Shown here in pieces: positions 19,629 to 53,269 of a DNA stretch of 64,000 nt (position 1 is its first letter; every line of letters begins with the position of its first letter). The translations under genes and the position numbers were made by a program. The notes beneath the pieces are model-generated. The model was given only the letters and a program-made list of their open reading frames with translations, was not told the origin of the DNA and did no database searches. The stretch covers positions 64,147-128,146 of the forward strand of contig CAVSXK010000024.1 in assembly GCA_963731925.1 (NCBI GenBank), in the 5' to 3' direction. Source of the stretch: an uncultured Actinomycetes bacterium. GTDB taxonomy: Bacteria; Actinomycetota; UBA4738; HRBIN12.

Positions 19629-20300
19629 GTGGCTCGACGCGGGGACCTCAACGGGTGGTGGTTGCTCGGCATCGCCGTGGTCGGCTTCTTCTGGCGGATC
19701 GCGTTCCGGCCCCGCGTCGAGGGGGCCGGACGAGTTCCCTCAACGGGACCCGCGATCGTGGCCGCCAACCACGTGTCGGCGCTTGACGGCGTCGTCCTCG
19801 CGCTCACCACGAGCTCGCGCAGCAGGCGGATGACCCGGTTCCTGGTGGCGGCGGAGTTCTTCCGGAGGATCCGCTTCGGATGGGCGCTCCGGTTGTACCG
19901 TCAGATCCCCATCCGCCGCGGCGAGCGCGATCAGGGCGCCCTCGACGTGGCGATCGAGACGATCCGCGACGGAGCGCTCGCCGGCATCTTCCCGGAGGGA
20001 ACGGTCAATCCGGAGCCGGAGACGGGCCTGTCCCGAGGTCGCAGGGGTGCCGCTCGGATCGCGCTCGCGACAGGAGCACCCGTCGTCCCGGTCGGGATCT
20101 GGGGCACGCAGGATCGATGGCCGAAGTCCGGCCTTCACATCCGGCGTCCGTGGCGTCCGGTGGTTGCCGTCTCGTACGGCGAACCGATCTCTCCGAAGGG
20201 GGCGCCGGACTCGCCCGGGGACGTCCTCGCCTTCACCGACCTCGTCATGGCCGCGATCGCCGAGCAGACAGAACAGGCGAGGAAGCTCGCGGAGGCATAG
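19629..20300 (+). CDS. plsC: 1-acyl-sn-glycerol-3-phosphate acyltransferase (PlsC / LPLAT family)
   Basis: HxxxxD acyltransferase motif (ANHVSALDG). FPEGTV motif. VPVGIWGT. Confidence 0.85.
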   Translation: MARRGDLNGWWLLGIAVVGFFWRIAFRPRVEGAGRVPSTGPAIVAANHVSALDGVVLALTTSSRSRRMTRFLVAAEFFRRIRFGWALRLYRQIPIRRGERDQGALDVAIETIRDGALAGIFPEGTVNPEPETGLSRGRRGAARIALATGAPVVPVGIWGTQDRWPKSGLHIRRPWRPVVAVSYGEPISPKGAPDSPGDVLAFTDLVMAAIAEQTEQARKLAEA

Positions 20301-20306
20301 CGAGCA

Positions 20307-20943
20307 TCAGCCGACGTGGTCCGTGAACCACGCGGCCGCGAGCTCGGCAACACGATCCAACCCACCGGGCTCCTCGAACAGGTGGGTGGCTCCGGGGACG
20401 ATCTCGAGCCGCGTCTCGCACCGCATCCGAGCCTGAGCGGCTCGGTTCAACCCCAGGACCTGACGGTCCAGGCCTCCGACGACGAACAGGGTCGGAGCCG
20501 TGACACGTTCGAGCGCCTCCCCCGCCAGATCCGGCCGGCCACCGCGGGAGACGATCGCCGTGATGTCCGGTGTGCGCGGCCGCGACGACGAGGGCCGCGG
20601 CGGCGCCGGTGCTCGCGCCGAACAGATCCACCGGCAACCCGTCGAGCTCCGACCGGCCCCGGACCCATCCGACCGCCGCACCGAGCCGCCGGGCGAGCAG
20701 CTCGATGTCGAAAGCCTTCCGTCGCTCCTCGGCCTCCGCGTCGGTCAACAGATCGAACAGCAGCGTTCCGAGACCTTCGCGATGCAGCCGGTCGGCGACG
20801 CGCACGTTCCGCGGAGAGCGCCGGCTCGAACCGCTGCCGTGGGCGAACACCACGACGGCGATCGCCTGCCCGGGGATCGTCAGATCGCCGGGCAGGGCTA
20901 CCCCGTCGGACTCGACGGTCACGGATCGAGAACGGGCATCCAC
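20307..20943 (-). CDS. dienelactone hydrolase family protein; frameshifted near 20630
   Basis: N-terminal half in frame of 20245..20943 (AVVVFAHGSGSS...DLFGASTGAAAAL). C-terminal half in frame of 20307..20681 (ITAIVSRGGRPDLAGEALERVTAPTLFVVGGLDRQV...IVPGATHLFEE). Confidence 0.65.
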
Positions 20944-21031: not shown

Positions 21032-21964
21032 TCACATAGCGGCGACGGCGGAGATCAGGTTCGAATCGCGGAGCTTGCGCAGCGCTTCGCGTTCGATCAG
21101 CCGGACGCGCTCGCCCGAGAGCCCGAGCACCTTGCCGGTCTCCCGAAGGGACAGCGGCTGCCCGTTCTCCAGACCGTAGCGGAGCGCCACGACGTGACGC
21201 TCACGCTCGTCCAGCACGCGGTCGACCGCCGTGCCGATCTCCTCGCGGAGCAGGGCGTCCTCGACCTCGTTGAACGCGGCGTCCGAGTCGACCTCCTCGA
21301 TCAGGTCGCCGAGCTCGGTGTCCTCGCCCACGGGCGACTGCAGCGACAGCGGCTCGCGCCGACCCATCTCGGTCAGGTCGTCGATCTCGTCGACCGTCGT
21401 GTCCAGCGCCTTCGCGAGCTCGTCGCGACTGGGCTCGCGTCCCATGGACTGGGCGAACTGGAAGCGCGTGCGGTTCAGCTTCCGGAGGCGGTCGTGGATG
21501 TGCACCGGCAGCCGGATCGAACGCGAGCGATCGGCGATCGCGCGCGTGATCCCCTGGCGGATCCACCACGTCGCGTACGTGGAGAACTTGAACCCGCGGC
21601 GCCAGTCGAACAGCTCGACGGCCCGCATCAGCCCGATGTTGCCCTCCTGGATCAGGTCGAGCAGCGGGAGTCCCTGGCCCTGGTACTTGCGGGCTACGGA
21701 GACGACCAGCCGCAGGTTGGCCATGATGAATCGCTGTCGGGCCGCCTCCGCCTTCCGGACCTCCTGGCGGGCCTTCATGATGGATCGTTCCGAACGCAGA
21801 CGGCCGGCGCGGAGACGCTCCTCCGCTTCCTTGCCGTGCTCGATCAGGATGGCGAGCTCGACCTCCTCCTCCTTCGTGAGGAGTGGCTCGCGCGCCGCCG
21901 CCTCCAGGTACAGCCGGAGATCGTCGGCGTCATCCGTGCCGAGCGGACGTGCAGGTTCTGGCAT
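21032..21964 (-). CDS. RNA polymerase sigma-70 family factor (group 2 / SigB-HrdB-like, regions 1.2-4)
   Basis: Region 2 ([35 protein letters not shown]). Region 3. Region 4 HTH ([29 protein letters not shown]). 310 aa. Confidence 0.9.
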
Positions 21965-22295
21965 GAACTCACTCTCCTCCTCGAAGCTCCCATGTGGAGC
22001 GTGCTTCGCCCCCGGAAGTCTTCGGGACCGTTCTCAGTCGACAGGGCCCCGGGCATAAGAAGACCGGCCTCCCCGGGCCACCGGGAAGCCATGCTAGCCG
22101 CACCCCTGCGCCCCTGTAAAGCCGACATACATGTAGACATCGTGGAGATACCCAGTATTCCCCGATCCGTGCCTGCCGGGGGCATATCGGGGCGGATCAT
22201 CCTCGCACGTTCACCCGATGGCCTCGGCGACGACCCGCTCCGGCCACCCTGCTCGGGTTCGATGGGTGGAGGTCTTCGAGCCAAAAGGAGGCGGC

Positions 22296-22511
22296 ATGGA
22301 CAGCGAGACCCTTGAGGGCGACCTCGACCTCATCCTCGGACCGCCGGCGAACGCCGAGCCGGTCGGCGAGTGGGACTGGGAGCCGCCCCTGGGGACGACC
22401 GTCCCGACGGCGAGCTCGGCGTACGAGCCCGAGGAGCCCGAGGAGGCCGAGACGGCCGACGAGGCCGACTCCGGGGCGTCGGACGACGAGGACGACGAAG
22501 AGGACGACTGA
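22296..22511 (+). CDS. small highly acidic hypothetical protein (71 aa)
   Basis: AGGAGG SD 5 nt upstream of ATG 22296. The long track ORF from 22218 likely starts here. C-terminal poly-D/E tail. Confidence 0.5.
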   Translation: MDSETLEGDLDLILGPPANAEPVGEWDWEPPLGTTVPTASSAYEPEEPEEAETADEADSGASDDEDDEEDD

Positions 22512-22623
22512 GCCTTCCCCGGTTCAACGGACGGAGGGGGCGGTCCGGGCCGTCCCCTCCTTCGCGTCGCGAGCCATCCAACGCCTGACCTATGCGACCC
22601 GCAAGCCGCCCGTACCGCTCTCC

Positions 22624-23946
22624 TCAGGCCGCGCGGACCGACAGGACGGGCGCGAGGTCTCGAGCGACGAGCCTCCAGGTCGCGCCGGCATCGGTGGACC
22701 CGAACACCTCACCCGACGTCGCACCGAACCACAGGCCCAGCGGATCGCCGTCGTCGCGGGCGAACGCCTGGCGGAGGATCGTGAGATACGCATCGGTCTG
22801 CGGGAGGCCATCCGTCCGACCCCTCCACGTCGCGCCCGCGTCGCGGGTCTCGAACACCCGCAGGCGTCCCTCGGCGGAGACGCGGTCGAGGTCGGAGTTG
22901 AGCGGGATCACGTAGGCGGAATCCGGATCGTTCGGATCGACCGCCATCGGGAACCCGAAGTCGCTGGGCAGGCCCTGGGCGATGCTCGTCCAGGTGAGCC
23001 CGGCGTCGTCGGATCGATAGACGCCGCCGTGGAACTGCATGAAGAGGCGTTCGGGCATCCGTGGGGCGCGGTGCAGGTTGTGGACGCACCTGCCGAGCGG
23101 CTGTGACCGCGCTTCCTCCGGGAGGTAACGGGCAACGATCCCGGCGTTGCCGACCTCCCAGGACGTCCCCCCGTCCTCGGTGATCCAGACACCGACGGCC
23201 GAGATGCCGACGGCGAGCCGATCGGGCTCGCCGGGCCACGGGCAGATCGAGTGCAAGCAGAGTCCACCTGCCCCCGGGCCCCACTCGGACCGGCTCGGCT
23301 GGTCCCACAGGGGCCGGTTCAGCTCCCAGGTCATGCCGCCGTCTCGGCTCTCGAACAGCGCGGCCGGGTCGACCCCCGCGTAGACGACGCCGTCTGCCTC
23401 ACCGGGGGTGACCACCCAGGTGCGAACGAGGGTGGTGTCCGTGTCTTCGGGGAACCGGGGGCCGTCCGTCTGTTCCCACGCTCCCGTCGGATCGTCGGTC
23501 AGGTAGACGCGCGGCCCGAACTGCCCGTGGGTCACGCTGGCGAAGTAGCGGCCGGTCCGAGGGTCACGGATGGCGAACTCGACCGAGCTGCCGGGGAATG
23601 CCCGAGCGGCGATGTCGATCTCGCCCCCGCGATCGCCGCGCAGGACGAAGAGGCCCTTCCTCGTTCCGACCAGCAGCTCCGTCTCGGCTCCGCCGGACAC
23701 CGCGCCGACGATCTCGATGCGGTCCGCGCTCGCGACGGGCGCGGAGCCGTCCACGCGTTCGCCTCCGAGGAACACCGCGACGTGCTGACGGACACGCCCT
23801 CGATCGTCGAGGGTCCAGCCGCCCAGGGCCGGGTGCGACCGCTCCAGCTCCCGGAGGACCTCGGCGACCGTTCCGCCCTCGACGATCACCTCTCGGTTGC
23901 CCTCGGCGAGCTCGCGCAGGGGCGGGCGCAGTCGGACGATCGCCAT
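22624..23946 (-). CDS. MoaD/ThiS-like ubiquitin-fold domain fused to a BNR/Asp-box repeat beta-propeller (sialidase / Ycf48-like fold)
   Basis: 440 aa from ATG 23946. Residues 1-87 are a canonical MoaD (MAIVRLRPPLRELAEGNREVIVEGGTVAEVL...VFLGGERV...RIEIVGAVSGG). It continues without a stop into five SxDxGxTW repeats (SRDGGMTWE, TEDGGTSWE, SDDAGLTWT, TRDAGATWR, STDAGATWR). No signal peptide. Confidence 0.7.
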   Translation of the reverse strand: MAIVRLRPPLRELAEGNREVIVEGGTVAEVLRELERSHPALGGWTLDDRGRVRQHVAVFLGGERVDGSAPVASADRIEIVGAVSGGAETELLVGTRKGLFVLRGDRGGEIDIAARAFPGSSVEFAIRDPRTGRYFASVTHGQFGPRVYLTDDPTGAWEQTDGPRFPEDTDTTLVRTWVVTPGEADGVVYAGVDPAALFESRDGGMTWELNRPLWDQPSRSEWGPGAGGLCLHSICPWPGEPDRLAVGISAVGVWITEDGGTSWEVGNAGIVARYLPEEARSQPLGRCVHNLHRAPRMPERLFMQFHGGVYRSDDAGLTWTSIAQGLPSDFGFPMAVDPNDPDSAYVIPLNSDLDRVSAEGRLRVFETRDAGATWRGRTDGLPQTDAYLTILRQAFARDDGDPLGLWFGATSGEVFGSTDAGATWRLVARDLAPVLSVRAA

Positions 23947-24058
23947 CGCCCCCGAGTCTAGAGGCGGGACGGGGTGGAAGGGGGTTCTCCTTCCTGCCGA
24001 CCGCGAGCTCGTCAACGCACCGGGACGAGGTCGTCGGCGGTGCGCATCCGGGGGCATC

Positions 24059-24988
24059 ATGGCGGTCGGAGGTCGCCGATCACCCATGCGGATCGAGATG
24101 CCCGAGAGCCGGTTCGCGGACCTGGACGGTCCCGTGCACTTCGTCGAGTGGGACGGGCCGCCGGGGAGGACGATCGTGCTCGTGCACGGGCTCGGCGGAT
24201 CGCTGCTGTCGTGGCTCGCCGTCGCCCCCGGCCTGGCGAAGCACGGACGGGTGCTCGCCCTCGATCTCCCCGGCTTCGGTCGCAGCGACCGGGGCGGCCG
24301 CCGGAGCCGCGTGAGCGATCTCCGGACCACGGTGTCGAGGTTCATCGACGAGGTTGCGGACGGAGGACCCGTCGTGCTCGTCGGGAACTCGATGGGCGGA
24401 GGGATCTCGATGCTCGAGGCAGCGCTGGAGCCCGCGGCGGTCGAGGCGCTCGTCCTGTCGAACTCGGTCTTCCCGTGGAAGCGCGGGTCGACGCTCCCGG
24501 CGCCGATCGTCATGCTCGGCTTCGCCCTGTACGAGTTGCCCCGCGTCGGCGAATGGGCCTCGCGTCAGCGCGTGACGCGCCTGGAAGCCGAGCGAGCCGT
24601 CCGGCTGGGGCTCCGCATCATCGCGGCGGACCCGTCGACGATCCCGCCGGACCTAGTGCGCCTGCACGTCGATCAACTGGTGCGTCAGCAACAGGATCCC
24701 GACGCCGGGGCGGCATTCCTCGAGGCCGCCCGGTCGCTCCTGGCGCTCGGCCGGCGGAGGGAGGTCGTGCGGTGGATCGTCGGGTCGGTGAAGTGCCCCG
24801 TGCTCGTGATCCACGGGCGCGAGGACCGGCTCGTGCCGCTCGGGTTCGCCTTGGGGGCGCTCGAGATGCGGCCCGATTGGGACGTGCGGCTGATCCCCAA
24901 GGTGGGTCACGTGCCGCAGATGGAAGCGCCCGAACGATGGCTCGCCGCCGTCGACGATTGGTTGGGGCGACTCACGGCGCCGCCCTAG
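24059..24988 (+). CDS. alpha/beta-fold hydrolase
   Basis: HGLGGS oxyanion region. Nucleophile elbow GNSMGG. C-terminal His region (PKVGHVPQMEAP). Start at ATG 24059; 24086 also possible. Confidence 0.8.
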   Translation: MAVGGRRSPMRIEMPESRFADLDGPVHFVEWDGPPGRTIVLVHGLGGSLLSWLAVAPGLAKHGRVLALDLPGFGRSDRGGRRSRVSDLRTTVSRFIDEVADGGPVVLVGNSMGGGISMLEAALEPAAVEALVLSNSVFPWKRGSTLPAPIVMLGFALYELPRVGEWASRQRVTRLEAERAVRLGLRIIAADPSTIPPDLVRLHVDQLVRQQQDPDAGAAFLEAARSLLALGRRREVVRWIVGSVKCPVLVIHGREDRLVPLGFALGALEMRPDWDVRLIPKVGHVPQMEAPERWLAAVDDWLGRLTAPP

Positions 24989-26424: not shown

Positions 26425-26687
26425 GACCCCAACCTACCGCTCCACGACCGGGGTGGGACCGGTGCTAGCCTCGCCCGCGGTGCGCGACGCCTGCGCGCCG
26501 TCACCCTGCTCGCATTCCCCCTCGCGCTCGCCCTCCCCGTGACACCGGCGCGGGCGACGAGGGGTGAGGCAGGTCGTGCCCGGGTTGCCGCCTCGCCTAG
26601 GGTTCCCTCCGCCGGATGTCGAGAACGCCTCGACGGCTCCGACCCAGTCGTGTCGCAGCCACCGGTGCAGGCGAAGGGAGTGACGGG

Positions 26688-27059
26688 ATGAAGTACATGA
26701 TCATGATGTTCGGAGACCAGGCAACGATGGTCGAGACCCGGTCGACGGAGTGGATCAAGGGGATGATCCGGTTCATGACGGACCTCGACCAGGAGCTCGC
26801 GGACTCGGGCGAGCTTGCCGCGAGCGAGGGCCTGGCCGATCCCACACAGGCCATGACCGTCCGGTTCGATCACGGAACGCCGGTCCCGACCGACGGTCCG
26901 TTCGCCGAGGCCAAGGAGTCGCTCGCCGGCTACTTGATCGTCGACGTCGAGGACGAGGCTCGCGCGCTCGAGATCGCATCGCGGATCGTCGCGGTCATCG
27001 AGGGACCGGTCGAGGTTCGACAGGTGATGGACGCGCCGCCGGAGGAGTACACCAGCTGA
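26688..27059 (+). CDS. YciI-like (YCII-related) small protein
   Basis: MKYMIMMFGDQ.... Conserved DGPFAEAKESLAGYLIVDVEDEARALEIAS...VEVRQVM. GAAGGGAG SD upstream of ATG 26688. Confidence 0.8.
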   Translation: MKYMIMMFGDQATMVETRSTEWIKGMIRFMTDLDQELADSGELAASEGLADPTQAMTVRFDHGTPVPTDGPFAEAKESLAGYLIVDVEDEARALEIASRIVAVIEGPVEVRQVMDAPPEEYTS

Positions 27060-27081
27060 TCCGACCGAGAGGAGAACCATC

Positions 27082-27576
27082 ATGCAGAAGATCACGCCGT
27101 TCCTGTGGTTCGACGACAAGGCCGAGGAGGCCGCCGAGCACTACGTGTCCGTGTTCAACGCCAGGCCCGGAACCGCTGGCGGTTCGGAGATCCTCGAGGT
27201 CTCCCGTTACGGCGAGGGCGGCCCGGGCAAGCCCGGCACGGCGATGACCGTGTCCTTCCGCCTGGAGGGTCAGGAGTTCACCGCCCTGAACGGCGGGCCG
27301 GACCACAACTTCACCGATGCCGTCTCGTTCCTCGTGAGCTGCGAGACGCAGGAGGAGGTCGACGCTTTCTGGTCGGCGCTCTCCGAGGGCGGCGAGGAAG
27401 GCCCGTGTGGCTGGCTCAAGGACCGGTACGGCCTGTCCTGGCAGATCATCCCGACCGCGCTGTCGGAGCTGCTCGGCGACCCCGACCCGGGGCGGTCGCA
27501 GCGGGCCCTGCAGGCGATGCTCCAGATGCGCAAGATCGACATCGCGGGCCTGCGGCGCGCCGCCGAGGCCGCCTAG
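27082..27576 (+). CDS. VOC-family protein (PhnB / 3-demethylubiquinone-9 methyltransferase-like glyoxalase fold)
   Basis: MQKITPFLWFDDKAEEAAEHYVSVF...GWLKDRYGLSWQIIP, characteristic of the PhnB-like VOC group. Confidence 0.8.
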   Translation: MQKITPFLWFDDKAEEAAEHYVSVFNARPGTAGGSEILEVSRYGEGGPGKPGTAMTVSFRLEGQEFTALNGGPDHNFTDAVSFLVSCETQEEVDAFWSALSEGGEEGPCGWLKDRYGLSWQIIPTALSELLGDPDPGRSQRALQAMLQMRKIDIAGLRRAAEAA

Positions 27577-27596
27577 CGATCGCTCGCGGTCCCGCC

Positions 27597-28820
27597 GTGT
27601 CGTCGGTCGACGCTCCCCGTGTCGAGGACCTGCTGCGCGAGCTCGCGCCGCAGGTCCTCGGCACACTGGTGCGCCGGTACGGGCAGTTCGACGCGGCCGA
27701 AGACGCCGTGCAGGAGGCGCTCATCGCCGCTGCGCTGCAGTGGTCCGATGAGGGCGTGCCCGACCACCCGCGACCCTGGCTCGTCACCGTCGCGTCGCGA
27801 CGCCTGGTCGACGGCTGGAGGACGGAGAGCGCGCGGCGGCGGAGAGAGGAGTCCGAGGCCGTGCTCGACTTGCGGGTCTCGGGCCCGGCGTCCGAGCACG
27901 ACGACACCCTCACGCTCCTGTTCCTGTGCTGCCATCCTGCGCTCTCCGTCCCGTCGCAGCTGGCCCTCACCCTCCGCGCGGTCGGCGGGCTGACCACGAC
28001 CGAGATCGCGAACGCCTTCCTCGTCCCCGAGGCCACGATGGCTCAGCGCATCAGCCGCGCGAAGCAACGGATCAAGAGCACCGGTGCGCGGTTCGACCTC
28101 CCGCCGGAACCGCAACGGGCGGAACGGCTCCGCGTCGTGCTGCAGGTGCTCTACCTGATCTTCAACGAGGGCTACACGTCGAGCTCGGGATCGTCGCTGC
28201 ACCGAGCCGACCTCACCACCGAGGCCATACGGCTGACGCGGATGCTCCACCAGCTCCTGCCGCAGGACGGCGAGGTCGCGGGTCTGCTGGCGCTCATGCT
28301 GCTGACCGATGCCCGGCGGGAGGCCCGAGCGACGGCCGACGGCTCCCTCGTCCCGCTCGCCGAACAGGATCGCGACCTCTGGAACGCGGACCAGATCGAC
28401 GAGGGCGTGAGCCTCATCACGGCCACGCTCGGCAAGGCGCCGATCGGTCCCTATCAGCTGCAGGCCGCGATCGCCGCGATCCACGACGAAGCGACGAGCG
28501 CCGAGGAGACCGACTGGCCGCAGATCCTCGCGCTGTACGAGGTGCTCGAACAGGTGTCGCCGGGCCCCGTCGTCACGCTGAACCGCGCGGTCGCGGTCGC
28601 GATGGTCGATGGACCGCGGGCCGGCCTGGCGCTGCTCGGAACCCTCGACACGGACGACCGCATGAGTCACACGCACCGACTCGAGGCGGTCCGGGGCCAC
28701 CTGCTCGAGCTTGCCGGCGACCCGATCGCCGCCCGCGAGTCCTACCGGCTCGCTGCGAGGATGACGGCGAGCATCCCCGAGCAGCGATACCTCGCGCTGC
28801 GCGCGGCTCGGTTGCGCTAG
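27597..28820 (+). CDS. ECF-type sigma-70 factor with long C-terminal extension (DUF6596-like), YciI-associated subgroup
   Basis: GTG 27597 in the frame of track ORF 27105. Sigma2 region (FDAAEDAVQEALIAAALQW). Sigma4 HTH (LTTTEIANAFLVPEATMAQRISRAKQRI). ~200-aa C-terminal domain with GPYQLQAAIAAIHDEA. Confidence 0.8.
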   Translation: MSSVDAPRVEDLLRELAPQVLGTLVRRYGQFDAAEDAVQEALIAAALQWSDEGVPDHPRPWLVTVASRRLVDGWRTESARRRREESEAVLDLRVSGPASEHDDTLTLLFLCCHPALSVPSQLALTLRAVGGLTTTEIANAFLVPEATMAQRISRAKQRIKSTGARFDLPPEPQRAERLRVVLQVLYLIFNEGYTSSSGSSLHRADLTTEAIRLTRMLHQLLPQDGEVAGLLALMLLTDARREARATADGSLVPLAEQDRDLWNADQIDEGVSLITATLGKAPIGPYQLQAAIAAIHDEATSAEETDWPQILALYEVLEQVSPGPVVTLNRAVAVAMVDGPRAGLALLGTLDTDDRMSHTHRLEAVRGHLLELAGDPIAARESYRLAARMTASIPEQRYLALRAARLR

Positions 28821-36118: not shown

Positions 36119-37807
36119 TCAACCTCGGGCCTCCGGCAGGCAGTCGAGAGCGTCCATCAGCGTGATCGGGAACGCGGCCGAGAACACGGGCTCGGAGCGT
36201 TCGGCCTCGGGCAATGGAGGCGCATCGTCGGGGTTCCCCTGCTCATGCGTGTAGTCGAGGATGAACCGCGAGATCTGCTCGAGCGAGAAGCCGCTGGAGG
36301 CCATCGTGTCCTCGTTCACGTAGATCTGGCTGGACCGCACGGCCTGGAACACGGATCCACCGCCGGCGGCCGGGAAGGCCGCGTTCAGGTCGCGTTCGAG
36401 CTCGGTCGGCGTCACCTGGAAGGCGCCCGACACGGCCGGGTCGAACTGCGCACCGTGGTCGGCGGTGAGCAGGAGCACGTAGCGGCCTTGACCGACCTCC
36501 CGGTCCAGGAACTCGACGAACCGCCCGAGGTCCTCGTCCTGCCACGCGAGCGTGTCCTGCATCTCGGGACTGTTCGCGCTCCAGATGTGGCTCACGTGGT
36601 CGATCGCCTTGAAGTTGACGAACAGCAGGTCGGGCACCGGATCGTCGCCGAACCCCTCGCGCGCGATCACCTCCTCGACCATGGCGCCCTGGTACGGGAT
36701 CCGGGCCGGCGTCGCCCATCCGCTCTCGTACTGCTCGATCGAGTTGTCGCGCCACTTCCCGTCGAGCGCGCCGTCCTGCCGGTCGATCGCCTCGGTATAG
36801 GCCGAGAGCGGTGGGAGATCGTTCACGTACGCCGGGAGCTCGTAGAAGGGCTGGTACCGGCCCTGCAGGTTCCACGTCGTCCCCTCGGCCCCCTCGTTGT
36901 CGGCTGCGGTCGGAACGCGCAGGACGGCGATGTCGCGGTCCCCGCCTCCCCACAGCGACCCGTGGCTCGCCATGTTGAGGTGCCAGGTCACGCTCGCGAG
37001 CGCCCCGACGAGCGGCTCGTTGCCCATCGCGCGGTCGTACAGGTCGGCGAGCGTCGGCTCCATCAACAGGACCGGGCCGAGCGCGCCCGCGCGCACGAGG
37101 TCATCGCCGAGGCGGAACTCCGCATCCGTCTGCCCGGTGTGCATCGGGAACGCGCCCGTGCCGATCGTGGCGTGGGTGGCCGGCGTGATCGAGGGCGAGG
37201 AGCCCACGCTGGCGTGGTCGAACCAGATCCCGTCGGGGATCATCGAGCGCAGCACCGGCCAGTCGTTCGGGAACGCGTCGAGCAGGCTCAGGCCACCGGC
37301 ATCCCAGACGAGCGTCACGATCAACGGGGGAGGCGTGTCGGGCTTCGGGATCTCGGGCAGCGCCCGCCCGTCGGGGGCGTCGAACGCGAAATCGAGCAGC
37401 TTGCCCTGGGTGGGCGCGACGTCGGCGAGCGTCACCGGTCGCTCTACCCGTCCGAGCGCCGGGACGATCCCCGGCCCGTACCAGAACAGCGGCACGTCCT
37501 GCAGGTAGTTCCACGGCCCCGAGTGAGGGAAGTTCGTGCCGACGAAGTTCGGCTCCTGCGGCACGAACACGATCTGCCCCGAGCGCTCGGGGTCGGTTCC
37601 CCGCCAGATCCGCAGGAGCTGCTGATGCGGGATCGCGCACGCGGCGTCGGCCAGGTCCTCGGACACGGGTGGTTGGAGCGAGAACGCGACGGTGCCCGGC
37701 GAGGGGCCGGCAGAGCCGGACGCAGCGGGGCTCGATGGAGGGGTCGAAGCCGACGACGTGCAGGCGCCGACCAGTCCGAGGGCGAGCACCACCGCGAGCC
37801 GCTTCAT
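36119..37807 (-). CDS. nucleotide pyrophosphatase/phosphodiesterase (NPP) family lipoprotein, alkaline-phosphatase superfamily
   Basis: Signal peptide plus lipobox (LALGLVGACTSS) from ATG 37807. Metal and nucleophile motifs TLVWDAGG, THATIGTGAFPMHTG, LLLTADHGAQ. Confidence 0.8.
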   Translation of the reverse strand: MKRLAVVLALGLVGACTSSASTPPSSPAASGSAGPSPGTVAFSLQPPVSEDLADAACAIPHQQLLRIWRGTDPERSGQIVFVPQEPNFVGTNFPHSGPWNYLQDVPLFWYGPGIVPALGRVERPVTLADVAPTQGKLLDFAFDAPDGRALPEIPKPDTPPPLIVTLVWDAGGLSLLDAFPNDWPVLRSMIPDGIWFDHASVGSSPSITPATHATIGTGAFPMHTGQTDAEFRLGDDLVRAGALGPVLLMEPTLADLYDRAMGNEPLVGALASVTWHLNMASHGSLWGGGDRDIAVLRVPTAADNEGAEGTTWNLQGRYQPFYELPAYVNDLPPLSAYTEAIDRQDGALDGKWRDNSIEQYESGWATPARIPYQGAMVEEVIAREGFGDDPVPDLLFVNFKAIDHVSHIWSANSPEMQDTLAWQDEDLGRFVEFLDREVGQGRYVLLLTADHGAQFDPAVSGAFQVTPTELERDLNAAFPAAGGGSVFQAVRSSQIYVNEDTMASSGFSLEQISRFILDYTHEQGNPDDAPPLPEAERSEPVFSAAFPITLMDALDCLPEARG

Positions 37808-37886
37808 CCGCGCGCCTCGGGCAGGCACGGGAGGCGGCCCATCATCGTCCGACGGGAACGCGGCCTGGAACACCAGGTCGTCCGCC

Positions 37887-39518
37887 TCACCCGCCGGGAC
37901 GGTCACGCCGGGCTGCAGCGGTGTCGGCCTTGGTCAGGCCGAGGATCCACTCGGAGACCTCCTCCAGCGTGTGCCCGTTCTGCCGGAGCTCGGCTTCGTT
38001 GACGAAGATCTGTGTCGGCTGGATCAGCTCGACGACGCGCGTCTGATCGCCGTCGGTGTCGAACGTCGCGTTGATGCCGTTCTGGATCGGTGTGGCGGCG
38101 ATCTGGAACGCGCCGGAGACCTTCGGGTCCGGGATCGAGCCGTGATCGGCCGTGAGCACGAGAGCCCACTCCCCCTCGCCCACCGTGGCGTCGAGGAAGT
38201 GGACGAACGTCTCGAGCGCCGCGTCCTGCCCCTTGACGGCGTCCTGCATCTCGGGGCTGTTCACGGTCCACACGTGGCTGATGTAGTCGATCATCTTGTA
38301 GTTCACGAACAGCAGGTCGGGCACCTCGTCGGCGCCGAACCCCTCGCGAGCGATCATCTCCTCCATCACGCGGGTCTGATACGGGATCCGCGCCGGCGTG
38401 TCGAACCCCTCGAGCAGCGTCTCGATGTCGTTCGTCCGCCACCTCCCGTCGATCTGTCCGTCGTTCGAATCGACTTCCCGAACGTCCCGATCGAACCCGC
38501 CGACCTCGTCGAGGTAGTCGGGGAACCGGTAGTAGGGCATGAGGTCGGGCGTGAGGTTCCAGTCGAACCCCTCGGCGCCGAGCGTGTCCGCACCGATCTT
38601 CTCCCGGATCACCGCGATGTCCTGGTCGCCCCCACCCCACATCGCGCCGTGCCCGAGCATCCCGAGGTGGATGCTCACGGTCCCGATCTCGCCCACGACC
38701 GGCTCGTTGCCCATCGCGCGGTCGTACAGGTCCGCGAGCGTCGGTTCGACCAGGTACGCGGGACCCTTCGCCCACGGCGTGGTGAGCTCGTCGCCGATCC
38801 GGAGCCTGTGCGCGACGATCCCGTGCGCGTCGGGGAACGCGCCCGTTCCGATCGTCGCGTGCGTCTGCGCCGTGGACGTCGGGCTCGTGCCGACGGTCGC
38901 GTGCTCGTACCACGCGCCCTGCGGGATCAGCGACTCGAGATAGGGCCAGTCGTCCTTCCAGCGTCCGAGGACGTTGCGACCGCCCGCGTCCCAGATCATC
39001 GTGACGATCAGACGCGGCGGCGTCTCGTTGCCGGCGATCGCCTCGACCATCGGCGTGCCGTCGATCGCGCGGAACGGGAACCCGAGCAGCTCGGCCTGCG
39101 TCGGCGCGACGCCGGCGAGCGTGACCGGACGGTCGACGACGCCGGCCGGCGCCACGTGGCCGGGCCCGTACCAGAACATCGGGATGTCCTGCGCGTACGG
39201 CCAGGGCCCGACGTGCGGGAGGCCCGAGCCCACGTAGTTCGGCTCGATCGGCAGGATCTGGATCTCGGCGCTCCTGTCGTCGCTGTTCCCCCGCCAGGTG
39301 CGCAGGAGCCACTCGTGCGGCATCGAGCACGCGATCGACGCCAGGCTGCCGCCCGAGGCCGAGGACTGCTCGAGGGGCTCGGATCCGGTGCTGCCCAAGC
39401 TCGCGGCCGCCGCTGACGAGGTTCGGGGGGCTTCGCGGAGCTCGACCTCCTCCCCCGAGCACGCAACACCCGTGACGAGCAGGAAGGCGAGCACGGCGAA
39501 CACACGTCGGGAGGTCAT
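37887..39518 (-). CDS. NPP-family phosphodiesterase lipoprotein (tandem paralog)
   Basis: Lipobox LLVTGVACSG from ATG 39518. Same motifs as the 36119 paralog (TMIWDAGG, THATIGTGAFPDAHG, LVLTADHGSI). Confidence 0.8.
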   Translation of the reverse strand: MTSRRVFAVLAFLLVTGVACSGEEVELREAPRTSSAAAASLGSTGSEPLEQSSASGGSLASIACSMPHEWLLRTWRGNSDDRSAEIQILPIEPNYVGSGLPHVGPWPYAQDIPMFWYGPGHVAPAGVVDRPVTLAGVAPTQAELLGFPFRAIDGTPMVEAIAGNETPPRLIVTMIWDAGGRNVLGRWKDDWPYLESLIPQGAWYEHATVGTSPTSTAQTHATIGTGAFPDAHGIVAHRLRIGDELTTPWAKGPAYLVEPTLADLYDRAMGNEPVVGEIGTVSIHLGMLGHGAMWGGGDQDIAVIREKIGADTLGAEGFDWNLTPDLMPYYRFPDYLDEVGGFDRDVREVDSNDGQIDGRWRTNDIETLLEGFDTPARIPYQTRVMEEMIAREGFGADEVPDLLFVNYKMIDYISHVWTVNSPEMQDAVKGQDAALETFVHFLDATVGEGEWALVLTADHGSIPDPKVSGAFQIAATPIQNGINATFDTDGDQTRVVELIQPTQIFVNEAELRQNGHTLEEVSEWILGLTKADTAAARRDRPGG

Positions 39519-39657
39519 CGGCGCGCATACGAAACACGACCCCGCCCGGAACGACAACCCAAGCCCAACCGAGCGCGATAGCGTGGCCCCCTCGTGACCG
39601 GTCGACGTCTCCTCGCGATGCTCGTCTTCGCTCGCGGCGATCGGGATCCCGGCGGCC

Positions 39658-40923
39658 GTGCTCACGGCCACCTGCGCCGGTCGCTCGTGCGACGCATCGG
39701 GTGGTGAGGCGGTGCGCGTTCCGTTCTGTCCGCTCCCGCAAGACGTGAAGGAAGGGGTCGTGAACGGATTCCGGGAGGGACGCTCGCCCGACGTCCTCGG
39801 TGTCGCGGACGGAACGCTCGTCTACACCGATCTCGAGGGCCTGCGGATGCCCTGGCCCGCCGCCGGGACGCTCACCGACACCCGCGTGCCGATCGTGTTC
39901 GCCGGCGCGGGCGTCACGAGCGGCGCCAGCGTGCCGAACAGGACGACGCTGGACCGCGTCGCGCCGACGGTGAGCGAGATATTGGGGTTCGAGCGAGAGC
40001 ACCCGGAGGTGCGTTCCGGGACCGCGGTGGCGGGTATCGCGAACGGCGAGCCGCCGAGTCTGGTCCTGCTCGTGGGGTGGAAGGGCGTCGGCTCGTCGGA
40101 GCTCGAGAACCATCCGCAAGACTGGCCGTTCCTCTCGTCGCTGCTCGACGATGGCGCCGGAACGCTCGAAGGCGAGACGGGGTCGCTCCCGATCGACCCC
40201 GCCGCGACGCTCACCACCGTCGGGACGGGGGGCCTGCCGTCGCAGCACGGGATCACCGGCTCGTTCATCCGGGACGGCGAGGGCGAGGTCGCTGAGGCGT
40301 TCCGTCCGGGCTTGCCCGTCGAGGACCGCCAGATCATCGCGACGCTCGCCGACGACCTCGACGACGCGAACCATTCGACGCTCGTCGGGCTCGTCGCGAC
40401 CGACGAACGCGATCGCGGGATCGTCGGCGGCGGCTGGTATCCGGGCGAGGATCCCGTCGACGTGGTGATCGGCGACAGCGCCGCGGCTCCGCTCGCCGTC
40501 GAGGTGCATCTCACGACCGGGTACGGAGCGGACGACGTCCCCGATGTCATCGGTGTGGTGCTCGAGGGTCGCGTTCGGGCGATGGACCGCTGGACCCGGG
40601 AGATCGTCACCGAGGCAGAGCGCGCCACGTCGGAGTCGACGCTGGTCGTGGTGACCGGAACCGGATCGGGTGAGGCGAGCCGGCTCGCGGTGCCGGACGG
40701 CGAGCTGGTCGAGGCGGTCGAGGACGCCGTCCCAGGGGACGCGCCGGCTGTCGCGGCGACCGTGGCGGGCGGCGTCTTCCTCGACCAGGCGGTACTCCGG
40801 GAGGAGCAGGTGACCGGGCAGGTCGCGGTCGACGCGATGCTGTCGGCCACCGGGCCCGACGGTGAGAGGATGCTGGCGGACGCCTTCCAGGGGTTCGCCG
40901 TCTCGTTCGCCCGGTACTGCTAG
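39658..40923 (+). CDS. divergent NPP/alkaline-phosphatase-superfamily paralog, probably catalytically degenerate
   Basis: Retains a TLTTVGTGGLPSQHG nucleophile-loop-like motif. The DHG metal motif is replaced by VVVTGTGSG. GTG start, and no obvious signal peptide. Confidence 0.55.
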   Translation: MLTATCAGRSCDASGGEAVRVPFCPLPQDVKEGVVNGFREGRSPDVLGVADGTLVYTDLEGLRMPWPAAGTLTDTRVPIVFAGAGVTSGASVPNRTTLDRVAPTVSEILGFEREHPEVRSGTAVAGIANGEPPSLVLLVGWKGVGSSELENHPQDWPFLSSLLDDGAGTLEGETGSLPIDPAATLTTVGTGGLPSQHGITGSFIRDGEGEVAEAFRPGLPVEDRQIIATLADDLDDANHSTLVGLVATDERDRGIVGGGWYPGEDPVDVVIGDSAAAPLAVEVHLTTGYGADDVPDVIGVVLEGRVRAMDRWTREIVTEAERATSESTLVVVTGTGSGEASRLAVPDGELVEAVEDAVPGDAPAVAATVAGGVFLDQAVLREEQVTGQVAVDAMLSATGPDGERMLADAFQGFAVSFARYC

Positions 40924-51664: not shown

Positions 51665-52034
51665 ATGCAATACATCTTGCTGATCTACGGGGATGAAACC
51701 GCGGGCACCGCCATGTCACCCGAGGATCAGGGGAAGCGCCTGCAGGAGTGGGATGACTACACCCAGTGGCTGAAGGACAAGAACTACTACGTGGGCGGCG
51801 ACGCGCTGCATCCCACCCAGGACGCGACCACGGTTCGCGTTCGCGACGGCAAGACGATCACGACGGACGGGCCGTTCGCCGAGACCAAAGAGCAGCTCGG
51901 CGGCTACTACCTCGTCGACTGCCCGAGCCTGGACGAGGCGATCGAGGCGAGCGCGCAAGCTGCCGATCGGATACCGGGGCTCGGTCGAGATCCGGCCGGT
52001 CATGGTGTTCGACGAGGAGGACCACCCGTCGTAG
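51665..52034 (+). CDS. YciI-like protein; frameshifted in the G-run at ~51978
   Basis: N-terminus [11 protein letters not shown]...[38 protein letters not shown] in frame 2. The canonical C-terminus [18 protein letters not shown] is in frame 0 and ends at TAG 52032-52034. Confidence 0.65.
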
Positions 52035-52036
52035 CG

Positions 52037-53269
52037 ACCGCGACCGCAGCCGTCGTCGACCGCCTGTTCCGGACCGAGCAGGGGCGGGCGGTCGCGACGA
52101 TGATCCGCGTCCTGGGCGACTTCGACCTGGCCGAGGACGCGGTGCAGGACGCGTTCGCGCAGGCGATGCGGGTGTGGCCGGAACGCGGGATCCCCGACAA
52201 CCCCGGCGCGTGGATCACCACGACCGCGCGCAACCGAGCGATCGACCGGCTGCGGCGTGAGCGGACCCTTCGCGAGAAGACGGGGCAGCTCGGCGCGCTC
52301 GAAGCGCTCGAGTCGCTCGGAGGAGACGAGACCGACGTGAGCGGCATCCCCGACGACCGGCTCCGGCTGATCTTCACCTGCTGCCACCCGGCCCTGCGGA
52401 TGGATGCGAGGGTCGCGCTCACGCTGAGGACCCTGGGCGGGCTCACCACGGGCGAGATCGCACGAGCGTTCCTGGTCCCCGAGCCCACGATGGCGCAGCG
52501 CCTCGTCCGGGCCAAGCACAAGATCCGCGAGGCCGCGATCCCCTACCGTGTGCCCCCGGCCGAACTCCTGCCCGAGCGCCTTCCCGGTGTGCTCGCCGTC
52601 CTGTACCTGGTCTTCAACGAGGGATACGCCGCCACGTCGGGTCCGCTCGTTCGGACGGAGCTCTGCGACGAGGGGATCCGGCTCGCCCGCGTCCTCGTGA
52701 CGCTGATGCCCGACGAACCCGAGGCGGCGGGCCTGCTCGCGCTCATGCTGCTGCAGCACTCGCGGCGCGACGCCCGGACGGATCAGCGGGGGACGATGAT
52801 CCTGCTGGAGGACCAGGACCGGGCCAGGTGGGACCACGCGATGATCGACGAGGGCCTCGCCACGCTCGACGGGGCGCTCGTCGCTCGACGACCGGGGCCG
52901 TACCAGCTACAAGGAGCGATCGCCGCGCTCCACGCCCGAGCGCCCCGACCGGAGGACACGGACTGGCCACAGATCGCGGCGCTCTACGACCGGCTCGCCG
53001 AGACCTCGCCCTCACCCGTCGTCGAGCTCAACCGCGCGGTCGCGATCGCGATGGCCGACGGTCCCGAACGCGGGCTCGCGCTCTTCGTCCCGCTCGAAGG
53101 CGAGCTGGACGGCTACCACTTGTTCCACGCGGCTCGGGCGGACCTGTTCCGGCGGCTCGAGCGCAACGAGGATGCCGCGGCCGCGTACCGTCGAGCGCTC
53201 GAGCTCGTGACGAACCCCCAACAGCGCTCCTACCTCGAGCGCCGGCTCGCCGAGGTCACAGGTTCTTGA
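52037..53269 (+). CDS. ECF-type sigma factor paralog with DUF6596-like C-terminal extension (start codon unresolved)
   Basis: Colinear with the 27597 sigma: [66 protein letters not shown]. No ATG/GTG/TTG between the yciI stop and the conserved N-terminus. Confidence 0.7.

Follow-up and report, generated by a model that had tools for sequence, protein, structure and literature searches.

We describe here a gene on the minus strand of a 64,000-nucleotide (nt) stretch of contig CAVSXK010000024.1 from an uncultured Actinomycetes bacterium (positions 64,147 to 128,146; this whole stretch is called the window below). The gene encodes a small MoaD/ThiS-type beta-grasp protein that runs in frame, past its diglycine, into an Asp-box propeller. 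It is a genuine single polypeptide, built from two proteins that are dedicated partners elsewhere. Small carriers of the MoaD/ThiS type are usually understood via their partner enzyme, for example MoaE, ThiG, CysM or TtuA. In the present case a CysO/SAMP1-type carrier has a dedicated partner from a fold class never tied to sulfur-carrier or ubiquitin-like chemistry, and the link between the two has been strong enough to outlast changes of gene order and to yield natural fusions. The known kind is the carrier-partner fusion typified by MoaX; what is new is a partner from an unexplained propeller family. The gene and its parts, with lengths in amino acids (aa), are:

22624-23946, minus strand: complete coding sequence of the fusion, 440 aa, stop codon at 22624-22626; start taken from the homologue alignment; identical protein on 13 contigs
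23689-23946, minus strand: MoaD/ThiS-type beta-grasp domain of the CysO/SAMP1-like subfamily, residues 1-86, ending AVSGG (Pfam ThiS, family profile)
23689-23694, minus strand: codons GGC GGA of Gly85-Gly86, invariant in homologues; the putative cleavage point lies after Gly86
23677-23688, minus strand: linker AETE, residues 87-90, directly after the GG and followed by the first propeller strand
22627-23682, minus strand: seven-bladed Asp-box propeller of the 3B7F / YP_299179.1 family, residues 89-440 (phmmer, Foldseek, AlphaFold2 strands)

The fusion is a single minus-strand open reading frame (ORF), 22624-23946 including the stop, with a 440-aa product. Read mechanically, the frame extends upstream to 24513. 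The start Met at 23946 (MAIVRLRPPL) is backed by an alignment of 32 homologues and is common to all close homologues, and GGGGG lies 3 nt 5' of the start codon. The product consists of the beta-grasp domain, a 4-residue linker and a propeller of ~350 aa, and its AlphaFold2 model has a predicted local distance difference test score (pLDDT) of 84.6 and a predicted template modeling score (pTM) of 0.76. An earlier note on this DNA had described a complete MoaD module with an internal diglycine and, behind it, a propeller of this length with five Asp-boxes and no signal peptide. Both statements hold: the Pfam ThiS match covers residues 9-86, Gly85-Gly86 is followed in frame by AETE and the propeller, the Asp-boxes include five canonical ones, and we found no hydrophobic N-terminus, signal peptide or transmembrane segment in the protein (maximal 19-residue Kyte-Doolittle mean 0.97). 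Judged from its sequence, the protein is cytoplasmic.

Evidence that the two halves belong together in one chain comes from a homologue search over 5.8 billion proteins. All 120 of the cluster representatives listed (at least 120 clusters, 71-98% identity) have the same fused architecture, nearly all in 438-462 aa, with xSGG and then a short linker rich in Glu, Ala, Asp and Ser. Gly85-Gly86 is invariant in these representatives, in the 32-homologue alignment and in the 29-member family of partner MoaDs described below. Ala or Ser stands directly after the GG in 111 of the 120, and the linkers, which range from 4 to 26 residues, have 4-6 in 108 of the 120 and 19-26 in some members. The identical 440-aa protein was called on 13 contigs from different samples, and, at 55-70% identity, further Actinomycetota and also Acidobacteriota have fused genes, in many independent assemblies. 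At the fused junctions there are sense codons with variable, lineage-specific in-frame linkers, not one altered stop.

The idea that the stop between two genes was lost through a sequencing or assembly error can draw on indels that separate the window from sister assemblies (over 21 kb, alignment with L002 and L003 opens 11-13 gaps and alignment with L001 opens 112) and on a neighboring hydrolase gene that looks frameshifted. Against it stand the 13 contigs with the identical protein, the clusters with the same architecture, the sense-codon junctions with their variable linker, and a usage of Gly-Gly codons that differs between fused and split genes. After comparison with three sister contigs and more than 80 genomic loci, an artefact is ruled out for practical purposes. 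The earlier note had held that orthologues consistently split into two genes would make the fusion an artefact; about half of the loci are indeed split, and the fusion is still no artefact, being conserved to ~55% identity and in two phyla. The hydrolase gene itself (Abhydrolase_11/DLH-like; 20245-20943, minus strand) is broken into two overlapping ORFs of 232 and 124 aa in different frames, and is intact in L002 and L003 as a 242-aa ORF. An indel in the assembly would explain this, or else the gene has recently become a pseudogene.

Orthologous loci were gathered from a one-genome-per-species collection, from homologue contigs and from selected plasmid and chromid records, all scanned with custom hidden Markov models (HMMs) for each half. 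The halves are adjacent genes in most of the ~90 loci, which come from Actinomycetota, Acidobacteriota, Gemmatimonadota and Beta- and Gammaproteobacteria. Four arrangements were seen: fused, MoaD-then-propeller, propeller-then-MoaD, and propeller without a nearby MoaD. In about half of the orthologous loci a MoaD ending in GG-stop is followed by a propeller start. In this MoaD-first form, the propeller start (MTELLVGTKKG) lies 2-16 nt beyond the SGG-stop, and in many cases the genes overlap by ATGA or are parted by just one in-frame stop. It was found in Thermoleophilia, Gaiellaceae and Solirubrobacterales, and also in R. solanacearum, Mitsuaria, Burkholderia, C. metallidurans CH34 and P. aeruginosa. 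The reverse order is that of Pyrinomonadaceae, Thermoanaerobaculia, Acidimicrobiales, Gemmatimonadales, Arthrobacter and Nonomuraea. Since the pairing persists in either gene order and in five phyla, the halves can be regarded as dedicated partners.

The junctions carry a record of how the two forms have evolved. The codons for Gly-Gly form GGAGG in 23 of 33 split loci versus 3 of 19 fused loci (p = 4e-4). In the split forms, GGA GGN makes a Shine-Dalgarno sequence 5-10 nt before the propeller start codon (for example L009 8253-8276; junctions in L009-L076), and the glycine codons of the fused genes are mostly GGC GGN. That GGAGG has been kept in the split forms and has drifted in the fused ones argues for translational coupling in the former and for long-standing fusion in the latter. 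In a rough, midpoint-rooted neighbor-joining tree of the propellers, the fused forms are basal and paraphyletic in the MoaD-first clade, with one split form nested among them, which points to more than one fusion or fission event. It is very probable that the window gene arose by fusion of the two partners, the intergenic stop codon having been lost in its lineage. Among the free partner MoaDs, 36 of 46 end exactly in GG. In the remaining 10 the chain goes on for 1-8 residues, so these lineages must tolerate trimming after the GG or carry it out.

The beta-grasp half belongs to the MoaD/ThiS family (PF02597), whose model it matches from profile position 6 to 76 of 76 with 36.1 bits, above the gathering cut-off of 22.5. 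The free-end Gly-Gly of that family is absent from the window protein, in which 354 in-frame residues follow the GG. Its best NCBIfam models are SAMP1 and moaD_arch (archaeal-type MoaD), both under cut-off: SAMP1 (NF041918), with an equivalog cut-off of 60 bits, gives 38.2 bits for the full protein and 43.4 for the domain alone. The bacterial moaD model TIGR01682 was not among the NCBIfam matches and Pfam found no MoaE domain, which sets the protein apart from the TIGR01682 family and from MoaX-type fused synthases. The same two models, SAMP1 and moaD_arch, lead in all 29 members of the partner family, 8 of which also match Urm1-like.

A profile built from these 29 partner MoaDs, drawn from five phyla, has R53, G85 and G86 as its only invariant residues. 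Its closest solved relatives are 4n6e_B and 3dwg_C (~1e-18), both aligned end-to-end and both ending in GG, followed by SAMP1 (~1e-15). Chain C of 3DWG is M. tuberculosis CysO (Rv1335), a thiocarboxylate carrier; CysO and chain B of the Amycolatopsis structure 4N6E are both thiocarboxylate sulfur carriers that are activated by an unlinked MoeZ-type activating enzyme (E1). On the strength of these alignments, the sulfur carriers nearest to the beta-grasp family are CysO and SAMP1. CysO differs in that it works with CysM, a pyridoxal phosphate enzyme, and lies in an operon with a JAMM protease and a cysteine synthase (Iyer 2006), none of which is linked to the fusion gene. SAMP1 of Haloferax volcanii (3PO0, 2L83) agrees in length and in its SGG terminus; it is archaeal, and the window protein falls below its equivalog cut-off and lacks a UbaA/JAMM context. 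Relative to the propeller, the divergence of the fused MoaD domain is 1.50, versus 1.53 for the free MoaDs of the reverse order and 1.26 for the split class, and SGG conservation reaches 90% or more in each of the three. The fused domain is thus under comparable constraint, with no decay.

The propeller half has 28 strands in the AlphaFold2 model, which make seven blades and not the five of the earlier note, with the first strand (89-95) and the last (434-439) apparently in the same blade. Over residues 89-439 it matches 3b7f_A at 34% identity (phmmer, E 1.8e-53), and Foldseek superposes it on PDB 3B7F with a template modeling (TM) score of 0.89 and a root-mean-square deviation of 3.0. With full-length similarity in sequence and fold, seven blades and five Asp-boxes, it is a member of the 3B7F family. 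The prototype (Reut_B4987 / YP_299179.1 of Ralstonia eutropha JMP134, a "putative glycosyl hydrolase with BNR repeats") is a 7-bladed propeller that has 5 Asp-boxes and is pierced by an open tunnel of 9 x 11 A; no function is assigned to it (PMC2716378). It differs from the window protein in being a stand-alone propeller without a fused beta-grasp, and its structure was solved by structural genomics and has no functional paper to go with it. In C. metallidurans CH34, which is related to the source of 3B7F, the gene in front of the propeller homologue encodes a MoaD that ends in SGG. The Asp-boxes of the window protein (five canonical, at residues 200, 256, 312, 367 and 417, and one degenerate, at 150) and its conserved residues are:

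23476-23499, minus strand: degenerate Asp-box TDDPTGAW, residues 150-157
23326-23349, minus strand: Asp-box 1, SRDGGMTW, residues 200-207 (Pfam BNR match at 198-209)
23158-23181, minus strand: Asp-box 2, TEDGGTSW, residues 256-263
22990-23013, minus strand: Asp-box 3, SDDAGLTW, residues 312-319
22825-22848, minus strand: Asp-box 4, TRDAGATW, residues 367-374
22675-22698, minus strand: Asp-box 5, STDAGATW, residues 417-424
23656-23658, minus strand: Lys97, in the invariant T-x-K-G turn after the first propeller strand
23251-23253, minus strand: His232, invariant in the propeller family, at the start of an innermost strand; also in 3b7f and the P. aeruginosa homologue
23080-23088, minus strand: Cys287-Val-His289; His289 nearly invariant, Cys287 kept in the actinobacterial and acidobacterial clades
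23029-23031, minus strand: His306, invariant, in the QFHGG motif; also in 3b7f and the P. aeruginosa homologue
22951-22959, minus strand: Phe330-Gly-Phe332, invariant, in the DFGFP motif
22882-22884, minus strand: Arg355, invariant, in a low-confidence loop (residues 350-358)
22771-22773, minus strand: Arg392, invariant

Across 35-63% identity, and in 3B7F and the P. aeruginosa protein as well, the residues kept are T95-x-K97-G98, H232, H289, H306, F330, F332, R355 and R392. Asp-boxes sit between strands 3 and 4 of a blade. From this and the strand order, the conserved residues, found at the starts of innermost strands and in the loops between strands 2 and 3, are predicted to lie on the top face round the tunnel. 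His232 would be on that face near the central tunnel, and the N-terminal propeller strand, where the MoaD is attached, would begin at the bottom face.

A check by HMM searches, which the earlier note had called for, gave matches to ThiS and, downstream of it, to BNR and Sortilin-Vps10, all above cut-offs, and left PSII_BNR below. The Sortilin-Vps10 match (PF15902, 33.8 bits, cut-off 33) covers only positions 3-115 of 446 and the propeller does not have ten blades; PSII_BNR (PF14870) scores 18.8 bits against a cut-off of 27 and NF010237 13 against 326, so the protein is no Ycf48 either. After 3B7F, the next structural neighbors are GH74 domains, Ycf48, DAIP and sortilin, at 12-16% identity (Foldseek). 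Ycf48/HCF136, sortilin Vps10 and GH74 are likewise Asp-box propellers, and the first two bind peptide tails. They differ from the window protein in blade number (ten in sortilin), in having two propellers in tandem (GH74) or in being lumenal (Ycf48).

The pair goes by database names such as "molybdopterin converting factor small subunit", "MoaD/ThiS family protein", "sulfur carrier protein ThiS" and, for the propeller proteins, "exo-alpha-sialidase". Taken at face value, these names would make the gene a housekeeping MoaD that happens to adjoin a propeller, or the propeller a glycoside hydrolase unrelated to the MoaD part, as could the BNR and Sortilin-Vps10 matches and the rank of the GH74 enzymes just behind 3B7F. 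We consider this very improbable. The pairing occurs in both gene orders and in five phyla and includes fusions, TIGR01682 is not matched, and neither moaE nor moaA nor moaC was seen near the pair in the Pfam census of neighbors given below. As to the enzymes, GH33 sialidases are six-bladed and GH74 enzymes have two tandem propellers (PMC2716378), as opposed to the single seven-bladed one found here. A GH33 identity was rejected on the blade number, the missing signal peptide and the lack of a match to a sialidase Pfam family, in place of which Pfam gave the generic BNR repeat. Likewise, there was no sialidase among the top 50 structural matches of the fusion protein, and the label "exo-alpha-sialidase" is not supported. 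A GH74 xyloglucanase, a secreted enzyme whose catalytic cleft is made by two seven-bladed propellers in tandem, was rejected on the single propeller, a target-normalized TM of ~0.3 and, again, the missing signal peptide.

One further protein bears on the propeller family. P0129 (704 aa) has a Ser/Thr kinase domain (Pkinase, residues 10-262) fused to a propeller of the same family (308-665), with no membrane segment evident between the two. It hints that the propeller can be a cytoplasmic sensing or binding module.

What the fusion does may be judged from linear fusions of a MoaD to its partner that have been characterized. In MoaX of M. tuberculosis, DR2607 of D. radiodurans and SAMP1-MoaE of Haloferax, the MoaD-type beta-grasp stands N-terminal of the partner it works with and its Gly-Gly is internal; other organisms encode the two as separate genes, and activity depends on a protease, encoded elsewhere, that cuts after the GG (PMC4326299, PMC8832034, PMC4443979). 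MoaX is cut at the Gly82/Ser83 bond, and the cut is needed for its activity (PMC4326299). The MoaD-MoaE protein DR2607 is cut by the JAMM protease DR0402 (PMC8832034), and SAMP1-MoaE by HvJAMM1 (PMC4443979). The residue after the GG is Ser in MoaX and Ala or Ser in the family of the window protein. The three differ from the window fusion in having MoaE as their partner; the window fusion has an Asp-box propeller and no linked molybdenum cofactor genes, and its cleavage is proposed by analogy. Concerning activation, MoeZR serves MoaD as well as CysO (PMC3227635), so that an unlinked, shared E1 is normal for such carriers.

Given that the known linear MoaD-partner fusions with an internal GG are cleaved, and that an unlinked, shared E1 is the normal case, the reading that we favor is that the fusion is a precursor. 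It would be cut after Gly86 by a protease encoded elsewhere, for which one of the JAMM/MPN+ type would be the obvious candidate. The released 9-kDa protein would then be adenylated, and probably thiocarboxylated, by a MoeB/MoeZ-type E1 also encoded elsewhere. Its C-terminal tail, which is predicted to be flexible (residues 82-86 have a pLDDT <50), would dock on a propeller pocket made up of Lys97, His232, His289, His306, Arg355, Arg392, Phe330 and Phe332. The propeller would use the carrier, most likely as a sulfur donor to an acceptor, and would in this way replace MoaE, ThiG or CysM. By analogy with the cleaved fusions, we give the cut after Gly86 an even chance. The whole sequence, in which the cleaved carrier is activated and used by the propeller, comes close to an even prospect, and sulfur-transfer chemistry is proposed more tentatively.

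Several observations weigh against the precursor. To look for genes linked to the pair, the ORFs lying up to 7 kb from the propeller in 82 loci were clustered all against all. A Pfam census in ~75 loci took in the two closest neighbors on either side (130 genes upstream, 130 downstream), and 30 other ORFs of the window were scanned against Pfam as well. No ThiF/MoeB, JAMM or MoaE was found in the 64-kb window, by annotation or by the Pfam scan of its ORFs, none came out of the 7-kb clustering, and none was conserved among the two nearest genes on each side, which means that every enzyme the precursor needs is hypothetical in this organism. No MoaD lies in the flank covered, 5-8 kb from the propeller, in Streptomyces, Nocardioides, two metagenome-assembled genomes of Solirubrobacterales, Rhodobacter and Fuscovulum, and a more sensitive MoaD profile uncovered no hidden one near the propellers of Streptomyces, Nocardioides and Alphaproteobacteria. 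We know of no propeller that uses a protein thiocarboxylate. The putative top-face pocket was deduced from strand order, not from coordinates. A linker of 4-6 residues is short for access by a protease and is equally expected of an intact, permanently docked fusion. Lastly, the kinase fusion and the propellers without a MoaD would fit a binding module as well as an enzyme.

Most of these points lead to the main rival, a permanent fusion that is never cleaved. The beta-grasp would then be a stably attached adaptor or regulatory domain with its GG tail as part of the interface, the tail lying at the bottom entrance of the open tunnel beside the N-terminal strand, and its C-terminus would not be activated even in the split forms. 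The short linker suits domains that touch near the junction, and the pTM of the two-domain model and the open tunnel of 3B7F would agree with such contact. The fused forms that are basal in the MoaD-first clade would mean that the intact fusion has long been viable, the kinase-propeller protein suggests a binding module, and the lack of a linked E1 or JAMM gene is no difficulty here. A solved precedent may be PDB 1v8c (168 aa), whose MoaD part (2-87) is followed by an extra C-terminal region in the same chain. Against a C-terminus without chemical use stands, however, the exact GG end of 36 of the 46 split partners. Invariance confined to R53, G85 and G86 over five phyla is a signature of carriers whose terminal carboxylate is chemically used, and the nearest characterized relatives are true thiocarboxylate carriers. 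Moreover, residues 82-86 are predicted to be disordered instead of docked, and some linkers have 19-26 residues. We hold a permanent fusion to be unlikely. The earlier note had left the choice between proteolytic release and a role that needs no free C-terminus, and both are still live options.

Another alternative is a protein-modifier system, in which the beta-grasp would be conjugated in the manner of SAMP, TtuB or Urm1 and the propeller would be a reader, a substrate, a ligase-like factor or a deconjugating or processing enzyme. In the last case the fusion could have its GG freed by the propeller itself. No NCBIfam model matches any of the 29 partner-family members better than SAMP1, and there are the Urm1-like matches besides. 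The nearest structural analogues of the propeller include binders of peptide tails or of proteins: Ycf48 binds the D1 peptide and sortilin binds neurotensin, and DAIP is a further case. A hydrolase or a site for binding carboxylates could be built from the invariant His, Cys, Lys and Arg. Frequent neighbors of the pair are stress and detoxification genes (AhpCF, VOC, DJ-1, GST, thioredoxin-like), which might suit such a system. On the other hand, there is no linked E1 or JAMM gene, the SAMP1 scores of the window protein, 38-43 bits, fall short of the cut-off of 60, PADLOC found no defense-system match for the fusion protein or the P. aeruginosa pair, and there is no precedent for a propeller as a ubiquitin-like ligase or protease. 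A modifier system is accordingly rated as improbable, below the permanent fusion.

More broadly, a CysO/SAMP1-like protein and a 3B7F-type propeller may together form an undescribed, widespread two-component ubiquitin-like system, in which the propeller is a new enzyme or receptor acting on the activated Gly-Gly tail and the window fusion a self-contained precursor. We put this forward with reserve, as a possibility and not as the expected outcome. The propeller's role could be that of a sulfur transferase that depends on thiocarboxylate, or of the system's protease or ligase. The range proposed for the system takes in soil Actinomycetota, Acidobacteriota and Gemmatimonadota as well as P. aeruginosa, R. 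solanacearum, Burkholderia and C. metallidurans. No MoaD-propeller pairing is described in the Aravind-lab beta-grasp surveys or in what keyword searches of the literature returned. The remark of the earlier note that it knew of no described family with this architecture can thus be kept in part: MoaD-partner fusions with an internal GG have been described, and the propeller as partner apparently has not.

The pairing provides a first functional handle on the 3B7F family, which has been solved, left unexplained and mislabeled "exo-alpha-sialidase". The pair is carried by hosts that are experimentally tractable, such as P. aeruginosa, R. solanacearum and C. metallidurans. The fused forms are natural substrates for finding the protease that exposes the GG; to our knowledge, none has yet been identified for the Gly-Gly of MoaX in mycobacteria.

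Beyond lineage-specific synteny, neither the ORF clustering nor the Pfam census nor the window scan produced a third conserved component of the pair. A rhodanese is present in 2 of the 130 upstream neighbors. The lineage synteny includes saccharopine dehydrogenase and aldehyde dehydrogenase genes in Thermoleophilia, and NadA/NrtR. In the clade of the window the gene is flanked, again in a lineage-specific manner, by a divergent alpha/beta hydrolase and WS/DGAT (WS-DGAT) on one side and by a sigma-70-family gene on the other. The only sigma-70-like promoter match in 21900-24300 is at 22091-22120 on the minus strand, upstream of the sigma gene (start 21964), which suggests that this gene is transcribed separately from the fusion gene. 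A hairpin 3' of the fusion-gene stop has the same stability as shuffled sequence (z 0.17), and an Rfam scan of the window from 19 to 28 kb returned no RNA family. The 660-nt gap between the fusion gene and the sigma gene holds a plus-strand ORF of 97 aa (22218-22511) with a strongly acidic C-terminal tail (DDEDDEEDD) and a high third-position GC of 0.90. It has no Pfam match, and a short ORF is called at this place on some sister contigs only.

Genes with a YCII domain turn up close to the MoaD-propeller pair at 12 of 92 loci, in three lineages that are not related to each other. For example, a cluster of YCII, VOC-like and ECF-sigma (DUF6596) genes lies ~3 kb from the fusion gene in the window clade (26616-28820 and 51665-53269 are listed for the window), and in P. 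aeruginosa a divergent YciI gene adjoins the pair (L091 4016-4441). In Pyrinomonadaceae/Blastocatellia, a double-YCII protein with a signal-peptide-like N-terminus is encoded just 3' of the propeller in 6 loci (L059, L060, L063, L065, L070, L077), and in the 5 of them where a MoaD was found the gene stands between propeller and MoaD. Such clusters being common, the recurrence may be due to chance.

In Rhodobacter sp. CZR27 (L089 3583-7110), the stand-alone propeller divergently adjoins egtB-egtD, genes of ergothioneine biosynthesis, in which sulfur is inserted; this single case may be a coincidence. On the R. solanacearum megaplasmid (L085 4497-7152), the pair follows hppD, a RidA gene and a gene for an MBL-fold hydrolase on the same strand, and the MBL-fold gene is not kept beside the pair in Mitsuaria, Burkholderia and P. 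aeruginosa. Elsewhere in the window, two tandem paralogues of ~595 aa each, with a type I phosphodiesterase/nucleotide pyrophosphatase domain (PF01663), are encoded on the minus strand at 36119-39671.

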